This document shows, one piece after another, positions 50,048 to 56,615 of a DNA stretch of 64,000 nt. The notes under the pieces were generated by a model, which saw nothing but the letters and a program-made list of their open reading frames with translations, was not told the origin of the DNA and did not search any database. Each line of letters begins with the position of its first letter. Position 1 is the first letter of the stretch. The stretch is from contig JANQFL010000087.1 of NCBI GenBank assembly GCA_028277845.1, positions 13,704 through 77,703 of the forward strand, read 5' to 3'. The position numbers and the translations under genes are program-made. Source of the DNA: Sneathiellales bacterium. GTDB taxonomy: Bacteria > Pseudomonadota > Alphaproteobacteria > JANQFL01.

Positions 50048-52138
<2,091 letters not shown>

Positions 52139-52216
52139 GACGCTGTCAGGTCCGCATTAATCCGCCATTAACCATAACCGGAGACCATTCCTGCCGATGA
52201 CGGCGAGAATGGTCTC

Positions 52217-52873
52217 ATGAGTTACGCGGTACGCTCCAGCATCGACGTAGCGCTCTGGTTTCACGACCGGGCGGATACCGGCGGCCGGCATCTATCCGCC
52301 CAAAAACTGCAAAGGCTGTTGCTGTTGACGCAAGCCGGGTATGCGCCGCAGGGCCTGGAAATCGCCTTCATGCCGGCGATATTCGTTCCTTCATCCATGG
52401 GGCCGGTGGACCCCAACATCTTCGCCTTGTTCGAGAACGGACTTCCCGCCATGACGCGCCACCCCATGTCGGAGAGGGCGGACGCGCACTTGAACGCCGT
52501 GTGGAATACATACGGTACTGCCGGCGCGGAGGACTTACGCGCCACAATCGACGGGAATCTGAGCTGCATGCGCCTGGTCGCAGGAAATGATTCGGCGGTT
52601 CCCAAACCGTCGGTGCCGCAAAACGCCAACGACGCGCCCAACAAAGAAACACATACCGTACCACCCAAGCCCAAACAGCCGGTGAAACCGCATATCATCA
52701 AAGGACAATCGGAGCGCGATTCGGGCAAATCCGATAAGGGCGGCAGTGTTCTGGCAGACCTTGCCCGGGATCTGCAAGACATGCAGAAACCAAAAAAGAA
52801 GACGGCGAAGAGCCCCATCTCGATCGGTCGCAAGGACGTGCGCAAATGGCATCCGCACAAGCGCGCCGACTAA
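52217..52873 (+). CDS. Panacea (DUF4065, SocA-like) domain protein with Lys/Pro-rich basic C-terminal tail
   Basis: N-terminal ~90 aa match the Panacea pattern as I recall it (DVALWFHDRA...LSAQKLQRLLLLTQAGY...MGPVDPNIFALF); C-terminal ~90 aa are low-complexity and basic. Confidence 0.5.
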   Translation: MSYAVRSSIDVALWFHDRADTGGRHLSAQKLQRLLLLTQAGYAPQGLEIAFMPAIFVPSSMGPVDPNIFALFENGLPAMTRHPMSERADAHLNAVWNTYGTAGAEDLRATIDGNLSCMRLVAGNDSAVPKPSVPQNANDAPNKETHTVPPKPKQPVKPHIIKGQSERDSGKSDKGGSVLADLARDLQDMQKPKKKTAKSPISIGRKDVRKWHPHKRAD

Positions 52874-52928
52874 GCCCACGAACGACCATCCCAAAACACG
52901 TTAACTATATGAAATATCGTTGAAATTT

Positions 52929-52960
52929 TGTCCGGACACATTAACTCGGGTGTCGGGACA
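52929..52960 (+). promoter_or_regulatory. pair of operator-like 10 bp palindromes upstream of the RHH-encoding ORF
   Basis: TGTCCGGACA (52929-52938, perfect palindrome) and TGTCGGGACA (52951-52960), centres 22 bp apart, ~100 bp upstream of the ATG at 53058. Confidence 0.3.
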
Positions 52961-53057
52961 CGATAGACGGTACGTTCCCACACGAAATGTGTTGTGATGA
53001 TTGCGTTGCGGCCGACATTGGCGGGAGCGCAACGAATTGCTGCAAGGACGACCAGCG

Positions 53058-53891
53058 ATGAGCAAGAAGACGGAAACACTCGAAGTCCGCGTGTCACCGG
53101 AACTGAAGGCCAGATTCACGGCCGTAAGCCGGGAGCGAGGCCAGCCCATGAGCCATATCATCCGGCATTTGATGCAACAGGAAATCGATTCGTATGCGCC
53201 AGACCCTCACCAGCACGGAGTACGCGCTATGAATTCATGGAAATTACACCGGTTCGGCACCATCGCAGCATCGGGACTCGTCGTTCTAGGCTTGGCACTC
53301 GCCATGAACGCGGCCACCCAGTCCACCGTTTCGGCCCGGGCGGACGTTCGCGTGACGTTTGCCGAAATGGACGTCAACGACGACGGCAAGATCACACAAC
53401 AGGAATACGAAACGTTCTGGAAGCAGATGGAGGAAGACTTCGAGCAGGAAGAGGACATTGCTCACGCGGACGACACTCCCGCGGCGTGCAAGGCCGATTT
53501 CGCCAAACTCGAAGAACTGGACCGCCATCACGGCCACGACCAATACCGTTATGATTTCTCGGCGGTCGACGGCAACAAGGATGGCGCCGTTCGTTATGCC
53601 GAGCTACAGTCCGCCTTCGACGTGATGCACACGGCCGAATTCCGGGAGATCGACCGGAACCAGGACGCGTTCCTGGACACCGGCGAACTCATGCGGGCTT
53701 TTCAGGAAGACGAACCCAGCCTCAGCAAGGCCTGTAAGGACGCCATGCTCGAATCCCACCCGGATGCGTTCGAGTTTCACGAAGACGATGCGCGGTTGAT
53801 CCTGGCGCAATTCGACGAAAACCGCGACCGGAAGATCAGCTTGCAGGAGTTTATCGAAAATCAGCCCGCCGATATCGGTTTCGGCGACTGA
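53058..53891 (+). CDS. predicted RHH (CopG-like) domain fused to a transmembrane helix and a periplasmic EF-hand domain; alternatively a signal-peptide EF-hand protein starting at 53229
   Basis: In-frame N-terminal RHH-like segment (LEVRVSPELKARFTAVSRERGQPMSHIIRHLMQQEI) with AAGGA RBS, then a hydrophobic helix with positive residues on the N-side, then canonical EF-hand loops (DVNDDGKITQQE, DGNKDGAVRYAE, DENRDRKISLQE). Confidence 0.5.
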   Translation: MSKKTETLEVRVSPELKARFTAVSRERGQPMSHIIRHLMQQEIDSYAPDPHQHGVRAMNSWKLHRFGTIAASGLVVLGLALAMNAATQSTVSARADVRVTFAEMDVNDDGKITQQEYETFWKQMEEDFEQEEDIAHADDTPAACKADFAKLEELDRHHGHDQYRYDFSAVDGNKDGAVRYAELQSAFDVMHTAEFREIDRNQDAFLDTGELMRAFQEDEPSLSKACKDAMLESHPDAFEFHEDDARLILAQFDENRDRKISLQEFIENQPADIGFGD

Positions 53892-53968: not shown

Positions 53969-54940
53969 TCATTCCGCCTTCTTTTTCATCTTCTCAAGCT
54001 GCTTTTTGAACTGCTCGCACGGATCGTTCGTGTCGACCCTGGGCGTGAACCACACGAAGTCGAATTTGTCCGCGTCTTCGTACGCGGCGATGTCCGTGGC
54101 ATCGTGGGAAACCTCGCGAAATCCGACACTGACAACGGTTCCATCCGGATCGATGATGCGCAGATAGAAGGGTACGCCACGATCCAACCTGGCGTGGCCG
54201 GCGCCGGTAATGAGAACGGCGCCGTCACGGCTCCCACCGTAGACCATGCGCTCCGACATCACCGCGTCGCGTGCACGCTGCACACGGGCAATGGCTGGAA
54301 CCGCATTGGGCGGTATCTGGTTGCAGTGAGACACGACGATTTCGTCCTCGAGTTCTTTCTGCAGCACTTCGGGAAACGGCTTGTCCAGCCCGGATTTACC
54401 GACCAAGTCCTGACCGAGGACAGCAAATCCCTGACGGGCGACACCGCGGTTGTTCTTACGCGGCAGGTTGGCCGCTACGACAGTCGCTCCGGCGGCGACA
54501 GCCGCATCGGCAATCGGTTGGTAGTTGGACCAGTCGGGCCAGCCGGATCGTTTCCATTCAATCCGTTCTCCGAGCCTACCCGCATCCGAATGCCCCTCGG
54601 ACAAATACGCGTCGATGACCGGCTGCTTGTCGGTTTCGATCATTTCGAAAGCCAAATCGGGCCGCCGGCCAGTGGCATAGACCGTCCGTGCCAGTTTGGC
54701 CTGAAGTCGGTGGTGATCGCGGTTGTCATGTTTCTCCCCAAGCAGAACATACCTGGCCCGCCGGACCGCGGCGGCGACGTCTTCCGCGGTGACAAACTGT
54801 TGCGTGCGTGTGGACCATATCTTGCCAATCAAGGGATGATCGGCGAGCGCCGAGTGATGCCAGTCGGACGCATCGGCCGAAAGCGGCCATACGAAGGCCA
54901 GAAGCGCGACAAGGAAGCCTTTGAACCCGCGCCTAGGCAT
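53969..54940 (-). CDS. ChaN-family (haem-binding/Tiki-like) periplasmic protein
   Basis: Signal peptide from internal Met (MPRRGFKGFLVALLAFVWPLSADA) and ChaN-like motif YVLLGEKHDNRDHH. Confidence 0.55.
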   Translation of the reverse strand: MPRRGFKGFLVALLAFVWPLSADASDWHHSALADHPLIGKIWSTRTQQFVTAEDVAAAVRRARYVLLGEKHDNRDHHRLQAKLARTVYATGRRPDLAFEMIETDKQPVIDAYLSEGHSDAGRLGERIEWKRSGWPDWSNYQPIADAAVAAGATVVAANLPRKNNRGVARQGFAVLGQDLVGKSGLDKPFPEVLQKELEDEIVVSHCNQIPPNAVPAIARVQRARDAVMSERMVYGGSRDGAVLITGAGHARLDRGVPFYLRIIDPDGTVVSVGFREVSHDATDIAAYEDADKFDFVWFTPRVDTNDPCEQFKKQLEKMKKKAE

Positions 54941-56615
54941 AATAAAGCAGCAGATAGATGGCGAGCAGGACCGCCACCCACAGTACCGTACTGCCCGTGG
55001 GCCAGGTGCGTGCCAGAATGCCTTGCGGTCCATGATGGCGGAAAACACCGGCAACGATGGTGTCGAGGTTGCGCCGGGTCCAAACGCTTGCCGACTTGTT
55101 GAACTGGACGATGGCATCGGTCAACCGGTCGACGATCACATATCCGAACACCCGGTAGAACCAATCGAAGTCCAGCGTGATGGTCAGCGTGCGTTTCATC
55201 ATCGGCAGCAGCACGAAGAAGGCCAGCCCTGCAAACAACAGCAATTGAAGCATATTGATCACGTGGGCAGCGGTGTACGGCGCGTACTGGACCGGATACG
55301 GCAATAGATCGTAGAGGAACTGGGGCCATAGTCCGATGCCGATGCAGGCCGCCGCGAACAGAATCATGGCGAGCCGCATATTCCACGGCGGATCGGGGGG
55401 CCGCATGCCGGAATCCTTCTGGAAGAACACGAACCACGGGAACTTGATGCCGGCATGCAGGAAGACGCCGGCGGACGCGGCGGTCAGCAGGAACCAGATG
55501 ATGGCCATGTGCTCGTCCGCCGCGCCTTGGCTGATCATGGATTTCGATACGAATCCCGATGTCCACGGGAACGACGAAATGGCCAGGGCACCGATGGTAC
55601 CGCATAGTGCCGTCAGCGGCATGCTTTGAAACAGTCCGCCGAGGTCGGTGCATTTGCGCTTGCCGGTCATGTACAGCACCGCACCGGCCGACATGAGCAG
55701 CAACGCCTTGTAGATGATGTGGGTAAAGGCATGGGCGGCGGCGCCATTCAGGCTCATCTCCGTACCGATGCCGATGCCCGTGACCATGAACCCGACCTGA
55801 TTGACGATGCTGTAGGCGAGAATGCGCCGCATGTCGTTTTCCAGCAGCGCATAGACGATGCCGTAGAACACCATGAAGATGCCGATATAGATCAGGATCT
55901 CGGTGCCGGGAAACCCGCGCATGAGGACATAGACCGCCGTCTTGGTGGTAAAGGCGGAGAGGAACACCGTACCGCTCCACGACGCCTCGGGATAGGCATC
56001 GGGCAGCCAGGCCGAGAGCGGCGGCGCACCGGCGTTGAGCAGGAAACCGGCGAGGATCATCCAGGTCCCGAAACTGTCGGCTTCCATGGCGCCGAAAGCC
56101 AGCGATCCGGTATCCGCCACATGGGCGACGATGCCGGTCATCAGCACGACGCCGCCCAGCAAGTGTATGATCAGATAGCGGATGGAGGCGCGGTAGGCCG
56201 CGGTCGTGGCGGCGCTCCAAATCACCATGGTCGACGCCACCGCCATGATTTCCCAGAACACGAAGGCGGTGAACAGATCACCGGCCATGGCCACGCCGAT
56301 GGCGCTGCCCGCATACACGAACCCCGCGACCAGTTCGACGGTGCGGTCCTGATTGAGCGCGAACAGGCCGCCGCCGAATGCCATGATGGCGAAGATGGTG
56401 GCGAACAGCCGTCCCAGCGAATCGGCCCGGACCGGCTCTATCACGTAGTCGAGGAACGGCAAAGCCGAAACCATGTCGCCCGGCACCTGCCAGATCGCGA
56501 ACAAAGCGAGCAACGGGAGCGCCAGAGTAAACACGGCGCGGATAGTCCGTCCGCCAAATAGAAGCAACGCGGCACCGAGGATCAGGATGAGGCCGGGCGG
56601 AAGGCTAGTCAGCAT
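54933..56615 (-). CDS. proton-pumping antiporter-like subunit (MrpD/NuoL/M/N family)
   Basis: 560 aa polytopic membrane protein with antiporter-module-like helices. Confidence 0.75.
   Translation of the reverse strand: MLTSLPPGLILILGAALLLFGGRTIRAVFTLALPLLALFAIWQVPGDMVSALPFLDYVIEPVRADSLGRLFATIFAIMAFGGGLFALNQDRTVELVAGFVYAGSAIGVAMAGDLFTAFVFWEIMAVASTMVIWSAATTAAYRASIRYLIIHLLGGVVLMTGIVAHVADTGSLAFGAMEADSFGTWMILAGFLLNAGAPPLSAWLPDAYPEASWSGTVFLSAFTTKTAVYVLMRGFPGTEILIYIGIFMVFYGIVYALLENDMRRILAYSIVNQVGFMVTGIGIGTEMSLNGAAAHAFTHIIYKALLLMSAGAVLYMTGKRKCTDLGGLFQSMPLTALCGTIGALAISSFPWTSGFVSKSMISQGAADEHMAIIWFLLTAASAGVFLHAGIKFPWFVFFQKDSGMRPPDPPWNMRLAMILFAAACIGIGLWPQFLYDLLPYPVQYAPYTAAHVINMLQLLLFAGLAFFVLLPMMKRTLTITLDFDWFYRVFGYVIVDRLTDAIVQFNKSASVWTRRNLDTIVAGVFRHHGPQGILARTWPTGSTVLWVAVLLAIYLLLYYA

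Follow-up and report, generated by a model that had tools for sequence, protein, structure and literature searches.

The Panacea domain (DUF4065; SocA_Panacea, PF13274) is best known from toxin-antitoxin (TA) pairs (PMC8832971). In PanAT modules, the gene for the Panacea-containing antitoxin, PanA, forms a two-gene operon with an adjacent, usually overlapping toxin gene, and the distribution of such modules is patchy and linked to mobile elements. The fold comprises a central helix with about five helices around it and a small three-stranded sheet, and a GPV motif is the hallmark of its β2 strand (Kurata et al. 2022, PMC8832971). Approximately half of all DUF4065 proteins occur outside of TA-like loci (Kurata et al. 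2022, PMC8832971), and therefore orphan status is already known for the superfamily. An alphaproteobacterial example is SocA of Caulobacter crescentus, a type VI antitoxin with a Panacea domain that serves as a ClpXP adaptor for the toxin SocB (PMC8832971). This action depends on the N-domain of ClpX (PMC8832971, PMC5422525), and no other Panacea protein is known to work by a mechanism different from sequestration.

Here we describe a protein, designated X, encoded in a 64-kb window (the whole stretch of DNA analyzed, 64,000 nucleotides) and representing a subfamily with a three-part design: an N-terminal Panacea-like globular domain, a disordered basic linker and a short motif near the C-terminus. 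The gene and its immediate neighbors are as follows:

50048-52138: FadB-like gene upstream of X, separated from it by a 78-nt gap
52217-52873, + strand: gene for the Panacea-like protein X (218 aa), identified as an open reading frame with coding-like GC3 and homologs
53058-53891, + strand: RHH/EF-hand ORF, with an alternative TTG start at 53001

Reading of the open reading frames confirmed the coordinates and both intergenic distances given in the preliminary description: the ATG of X is at 52217 and its stop codon at 52871-52873, with 78 nt to the upstream gene and 184 nt from the stop codon to the ATG at 53058 of the RHH/EF-hand ORF. The upstream gene product (696 aa) is a FadB-type enoyl-CoA hydratase/3-hydroxyacyl-CoA dehydrogenase. 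GC content at the three codon positions of X was 0.60/0.46/0.72, which is coding-like and close to the neighboring genes, and its overall GC was also in line with these genes in a region of ~60% GC. A word-indexed protein search identified five full-length homologs at ~50% identity, and a second such search added four proteins, none of them named. When one genome per species was scanned, relatives of X were detected in 130 species genomes. Because of this conservation and the coding GC3 pattern, the possibility that X is a spurious ORF was ruled out.

Within the protein, the following features were recognized:

52217-52579, + strand: globular, diverged Panacea/DUF4065-like domain (residues 1-121) with six helices and small strands
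52400-52408, + strand: GPV signature (G62-P63-V64) of the Panacea β2 strand, read directly from the sequence
52580-52825, + strand: disordered, basic, Lys/Pro-rich linker (residues 122-203), defined by pLDDT mostly below 60 and by composition
52748-52777, + strand: clade-specific short helix (residues 178-187) with the motif GSxLxDLxxxLQ, from the AlphaFold model and the clade alignment
52826-52855, + strand: family C-terminal motif GRKDVRKWHP (residues 204-213), five residues from the C-terminus

The preliminary description had assigned the N-terminal region to the Panacea domain and held that the lack of a PF13274 match would speak against this. Nominally it does: hmmscan of X against Pfam-A returned nothing at E ≤ 1, PF13274 included, and X does not reach the gathering score of this family (25.7 bits). 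Neither NCBIfam nor PADLOC gave a match, and the only direct profile match was phrog_1281, an unannotated PHROGs family (E = 8.5e-9, residues 1-109). Homology to Panacea was instead found via intermediate sequences. When 115 family members were scanned singly, 46 matched PF13274 at E ≤ 0.01, the best at 5.7e-7, and no other family was recurrent. PF13274 was the sole match for eight of the ten members that were checked closely, with 14-28 bits compared to the gathering score. One protein, P0131, exceeded that score (28.3 bits) with a match covering the entire profile (positions 1-113 of 113).

Multiple alignments and structure prediction pointed in the same direction. X carries the GPV motif, whose residues G62 and P63 were invariant in alignments A1, A4 and A5, and G62 was nearly invariant in alignment A3, which contained 115 sequences. 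The AlphaFold2 model, built from the 115-sequence alignment, had pLDDT values mostly above 90 over residues 1-121 (~74 in the loop at 41-50) and contained six helices, with short strands flanking the GPV motif; the central helix, the roughly five helices around it and the small three-stranded sheet of the Panacea fold are all present. In the Foldseek comparison of the model with PDB structures, no match reached an E-value below 2, searching PDB sequences with the family profile was likewise negative at E ≤ 10, and a structure search in BFVD returned solely unnamed phage proteins. We conclude that the N-terminal domain of X is a diverged Panacea-like fold beyond the reach of the current Pfam model, since transitive homology, the GPV motif and the predicted fold agree despite the missing Pfam match. 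The original assignment thus holds by this indirect route, and the part of it that fell away is the direct match to PF13274.

The tail proved as basic, as rich in Lys and Pro and as unusual as had been proposed. Residues 126-218 (93 aa) include 16 Lys and 12 Pro and have a net charge of +11 and a pI of 10.2, whereas the pI of the N-terminal part is 5.7; pLDDT of the tail was mostly below 60. The linker of X (86 aa) belongs to the window clade, which has the longest linkers in the family (75-87 aa); the family medians are 45 aa for the linker and 177 aa for the protein. The description of the tail as low complexity was correct in that it is basic and disordered, but it is not mere low complexity, as motifs are kept both clade-wide and family-wide. 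Within the clade, identity was ~33% in the tail compared to ~62% in the domain, and three tail blocks, IKG, GSxLxDLxxxLQ and KWxPxKR, were retained. In the whole family (115 sequences), G204, W211 and P213 were nearly invariant. Among 76 distinct full-length proteins taken from species genomes, 72 had W-x-P within 3-14 residues of the C-terminus. The consensus of the family motif is G-[KR]-x-V-x-x-K-x-W-x-P, and W-x-P usually follows T-x-x-G-[KR]-x-V-x-[VT]-K-x (for example, RTQDGRPVTVKAWVPG), the corresponding segment of X being GRKDVRKWHP. Two members, P0011 and P0017, had two copies of the motif. Most linkers in the family are short and weakly charged (median net charge +2), and the motif together with the C-terminal end is basic family-wide (median +4). 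Because linker and motif occur throughout the family and the longest linkers are found in the window clade, the long tail of X reflects expansion, specific to its clade, of a design that the whole family shares.

We also compared the model of X with that of a typical member, P0010 (166 aa, mean pLDDT 89), in which the domain extends to approximately residue 140 and includes an extra strand and helix. The C-terminal motif of P0010 was predicted to be unstructured (pLDDT 56-66) beside the confidently folded domain, which would fit a linear motif left free for binding in trans. In the model of X, the last domain helix of P0010 was replaced by low-confidence sequence, and the short helix was placed at residues 178-187. 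The last eight residues of X had pLDDT of ~80, with values below 70 for the preceding 80 residues, and this could mean that the peptide is docked in cis and not free. Judging from these models, the last domain helix kept by typical members seems to have been lost in the window clade, and the function of this clade may therefore have diverged. In one sequence of alignment A4, P0028, a LuxR/GerE-type helix-turn-helix forms the end of the protein and the C-terminal W-x-P motif is missing; this domain swap may hint at an output role of the tail.

To define the family, an alignment of the five ~50% identical homologs was used as the HMM query in an exhaustive search, which identified 211 cluster representatives at E ≤ 1e-3, of which 117 had E ≤ 1e-10 and the best had E-values down to 2e-34; nearly all matches spanned residues 1-110. 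Among the 130 genomes with relatives of X, 80 were listed, and all but two of these were labeled Alphaproteobacteria, the exceptions having bin labels Flavobacteriales and Marinimicrobia. The more precisely named carriers were mostly Rhodospirillales, such as Rhodospirillaceae, Thalassospiraceae, Telmatospirillum, Haematospirillum, Novispirillum and Magnetovibrio; among the carriers in culture are Novispirillum itersonii ATCC 12639, Telmatospirillum sp. J64-1 and Haematospirillum. When 72,556 plasmids and 50,697 phage genomes were searched by tblastn, no relative was detected. Instead of the mobile-linked, patchy distribution of PanAT, we observed an alphaproteobacterial family with synteny that follows lineages and with GC content like that of the neighboring genes. 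It is a chromosomal, vertically inherited alphaproteobacterial subfamily of Panacea/DUF4065, mainly in Rhodospirillales. Our literature searches found no description of a subfamily with the three-part design, which is apparently new to description.

Analysis of genomic context gave no evidence for an adjacent partner. In metagenomic contigs with 50% identical homologs, the gene order was CoxG (−), FadB (+), X (+), ChaN (−) and an Mrp subunit (−), with 81-91 nt between fadB and X and only 17-18 nt between X and the convergent chaN. The RHH/EF-hand gene was not found in orthologous loci L001-L005 and was present in L006, a near-identical contig. It is therefore an insertion specific to the lineage of the window and not an obligate partner. 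Clustering of neighbors in ~80 species loci revealed several lineage-specific synteny classes, in which X is located between CoxL/S/G and Mrp E/F/G, between a YdbH-like protein of ~900 aa and Mrp, between a hydrolase plus an unknown 150-aa protein and a Liv-type ABC transporter, or between MoeA/XdhC and ChaN. No small gene accompanied X throughout these loci. In the window, the gaps at 52139-52216 and 52874-53057 contained no credible small ORF, only ORFs of 24-25 aa and antisense ORFs, all unsupported. The earlier observation that no small toxin-like ORF lies beside X was thus extended from the window to ~80 species loci. In contrast, the TA framing in which it had been placed was not borne out: homologs are consistently stand-alone and chromosomal, amid housekeeping genes (Cox or FadB, ChaN, Mrp, Liv ABC, XdhC and YdbH-like), a situation which the preliminary description had itself named as evidence against its proposal. 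Loci of X lack both the adjacent, usually overlapping toxin gene of a PanAT operon and an adjacent socB-like toxin. Since no toxin gene lies beside members of this family, X is probably not half of a two-gene TA module.

Several recurrent or nearby genes were considered as partners and rejected. The most common recurrent neighbor was a DUF192 (PF02643) gene, which followed X in the same orientation in 16 of the 80 species loci. It lay directly 3' of X in L087 (6558-7301) and L090 (6552-7355) and also in L023, L032, L053, L059, L068, L072 and L080; in nine other loci it was located 2.6-5.6 kb downstream. In a low-GC gut or rumen clade (L087-L092), the start of this gene overlaps or directly adjoins the X stop codon, and the encoded protein has long IPKGPNAP(G/S) repeats at the C-terminus. 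The DUF192 product is a periplasmic protein of signal-peptide or lipoprotein type, and the gene was absent from the 64-kb window and from most loci. On these grounds it was rejected as a toxin partner, and we take the adjacency as a remnant of ancestral gene order. The neighbor with RHH, TM and EF-hand segments was rejected because it is absent from orthologous loci, and the small ORFs in the gaps because they have no support and the downstream gap of the orthologs is merely 17-18 nt. In L023, L058 and L080, a flagellar basal-body-rod-like ORF of 100-137 aa lies directly upstream of X and matches Flg_bb_rod and Flg_bbr_C near the cut-offs; occurring in only three loci, it was likewise rejected as a partner.

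The 78-nt gap before X is conserved, with 81% identity between loci whose proteins are 50% identical, and contains two candidate regulatory features:

52157-52175, + strand: full CtrA-box consensus TTAA-N7-TTAAC (TTAATCCGCCATTAACCAT; box proper at 52157-52172), ~60 nt upstream of the ATG
52181-52216, + strand: stem-loop with a 10-bp outer stem (GAGACCATTC/GAATGGTCTC) and an inner stem of 3-5 bp, ending at the base that immediately precedes the ATG

The TTAA-N7-TTAA consensus of CtrA is conserved and functional across Alphaproteobacteria (PMC9437464). It occurs only once in the 64-kb window (0.06 expected), in the promoter region of X, and recurs at −60/−62 in L001, L005 and L026, compared to a background of 0.006 per 200 nt; the full-length box is limited to the window clade and L026. 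Among 82 X loci, 35 had the half-site TTAAC within 120 nt upstream, compared to 41 among 292 upstream regions used as controls (odds ratio 4.6; p = 1e-7 by Fisher's test), a p-value that overstates independence because the loci are phylogenetically related. A sigma-70 promoter scan found none, and there was no terminator after fadB. Judging from the box, X in the window clade is probably transcribed from its own CtrA-dependent promoter. The stem-loop had a fold z-score of −4.4 against shuffled sequences and was retained in three orthologous loci with 13 consensus pairs, three of which showed compensatory changes; Rfam had no match over 51900-53200. As the hairpin occupies the Shine-Dalgarno position, it suggests a candidate translational control element.

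The inserted downstream gene has features of its own. Its product combines a weak RelB/CopG-like N-terminus, one hydrophobic segment, which is probably transmembrane, and several strong EF-hand Ca-binding motifs, and its predicted organization looks like that of a one-component regulator that is anchored in the membrane and senses calcium in the periplasm. The gap at 52874-53057 is AT-richer and contains a near-direct repeat (GTCCGGACAC / GTCGGGACAC) and two TTAAC pentamers, and may be a putative operator for the RHH protein. Beyond this ORF lies a gene of the ChaN/Tiki haem-binding family (53969-55117, − strand). It was listed with 382 aa, and the homologs and the gene called in L006 have 322-324 aa; its true start is probably ~60 codons downstream of the first ATG.

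With regard to function, we tentatively favor, at somewhat under even chances, a model in which X is a non-TA tethering adaptor with a partner bound in trans. Its Panacea domain, like those of PanA and SocA, would capture a protein ligand, and the flexible tail would deliver this ligand by docking the C-terminal peptide on a conserved machine. Since the peptide is conserved family-wide, its partner should be conserved family-wide as well, and because no neighbor is conserved, it is probably encoded elsewhere and belongs to the core components of the cell. The leading candidate for the dock would be the N-domain of ClpX. Adaptors of AAA+ proteases of the SspB type have a folded cargo domain, a long linker and a C-terminal ClpX-binding peptide, and this layout, together with the role of SocA as a ClpXP adaptor, is why a tethering adaptor acting with ClpX is favored. 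We take the resemblance of the C-terminal motif to ClpX-binding peptides to be loose. The adaptor and ClpX steps are drawn from architecture and analogy, and ClpXP as the specific machine is rather unlikely. In the window clade, expression of X might be driven by the CtrA-dependent promoter and modulated by the hairpin over the ribosome-binding region. In its most complete form, the family would have descended from the Panacea antitoxin domain into a housekeeping role, as a CtrA-controlled adaptor handing a captured protein to ClpXP or another core machine, and this full version is distinctly unlikely to hold in every part. The family occurs in Rhodospirillales-type alphaproteobacteria, which are reported to have largely lost the CpdR/RcdA adaptor system (Brilli et al. 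2010).

Two alternatives retain a toxin. X could be an orphan antitoxin acting in trans on a toxin encoded elsewhere, with the C-terminal peptide as a linear neutralizing element and the Panacea domain as a sensor, an arrangement that has been proposed for PanA antitoxins with several domains. The Panacea fold with its GPV motif and the family-wide conservation of the C-terminal motif are consistent with this, and linear attachment of neutralizing elements to Panacea has been shown in a study that also proposes a sensory role of the domain (Ernits et al. 2023, PMC10440598). However, none of the ~80 species loci has an adjacent toxin, syntenic and vertical inheritance without plasmid or phage copies is unlike typical TA modules, and a family-wide toxin that in no case lies beside its antitoxin would have no precedent among PanAT modules, so we consider this unlikely. 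Far less probable still, to the point of being nearly negligible, is a classical PanAT two-gene module whose toxin would be the RHH/EF-hand ORF or an unannotated small ORF. What speaks for it is that the domain family is known chiefly from TA pairs (PMC8832971) and that the RHH part of the neighbor weakly resembles RelB/CopG antitoxins (E 0.002-0.02, below cut-offs). Synteny contradicts it, as L001-L005 lack the RHH/EF-hand gene, whose product moreover looks like a membrane-anchored regulator rather than a toxin, and the gaps hold nothing beyond unsupported ORFs of at most 25 aa and antisense ORFs, the orthologous downstream gap being 17-18 nt.

The remaining alternatives concern the tail. A nucleic-acid-associated regulator would account for the strong positive charge of the X tail (pI 10.2, net +11) and for the basic C-terminal end found family-wide (median +4). 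The helix-turn-helix of P0028, which stands without the W-x-P motif, would also suit such a role, as would the homologous domain of DarG, which according to the title of the cited report mimics ssDNA. Yet Pfam and NCBIfam scans of X gave no known DNA- or RNA-binding domain, the linkers of most members are short and weakly charged (median net +2), P0028 is a single case, and Ernits et al. (2023, PMC10440598) argue against transcriptional autoregulation by the Panacea domain itself; we regard this explanation as doubtful. Finally, the motif could be purely intramolecular, folding onto the Panacea domain to autoinhibit it or to complete the fold, in which case X would be a single-module binder or sensor. 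The higher confidence of the last eight residues of X (pLDDT ~80 after 80 residues below 70) points that way, and such docking might compensate for the domain helix apparently missing in the window clade. In P0010, however, the domain is complete and the motif next to it is predicted to be unstructured (pLDDT 56-66), and the doubled motif of P0011 and P0017 suits a linear motif binding in trans better, which makes an intramolecular role improbable.

The X family provides a clean test case for the role of orphan Panacea proteins, with the advantages of vertical inheritance and of housekeeping neighbors rather than mobile elements. Its conserved short linear motif should identify the partner by pull-down, and the window clade offers a recognizable regulatory input in the form of the CtrA box. 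If the adaptor model is true, an antitoxin domain has been recruited into core cell physiology, the precedent of SocA extends beyond Caulobacter, and "orphan" Panacea proteins gain a defined non-TA role in the physiology of the cell. If it fails, X retains its value as a boundary case that the PF13274 profile does not detect.

Compared to the described systems, X has the same fold class as PanA (a central helix, surrounding helices and a small sheet), with GPV at residues 62-64, and members of its family reach PF13274, one of them above the gathering score. It differs from PanA in having no PF13274 match of its own, no cognate toxin gene and no mobile or patchy distribution, and its domain is followed by a disordered linker and a W-x-P motif conserved at the C-terminus. 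The C-terminal domain of DarG (PDB 7YK3) has 15% sequence identity with X; DarG also contains an N-terminal macrodomain and is encoded with an adjacent DarT toxin, neither of which is found at X. SocA differs in that socA adjoins socB whereas X has no adjacent toxin, but an alphaproteobacterial Panacea protein that delivers a bound protein to a conserved machine is what the model proposed for X would imply. The fold of SspB is unrelated, and this protein is an architectural analog compared by layout alone rather than a homolog; in layout, X shares with it a folded domain of ~110-125 aa, a long disordered linker and a short, conserved, basic/hydrophobic C-terminal peptide.
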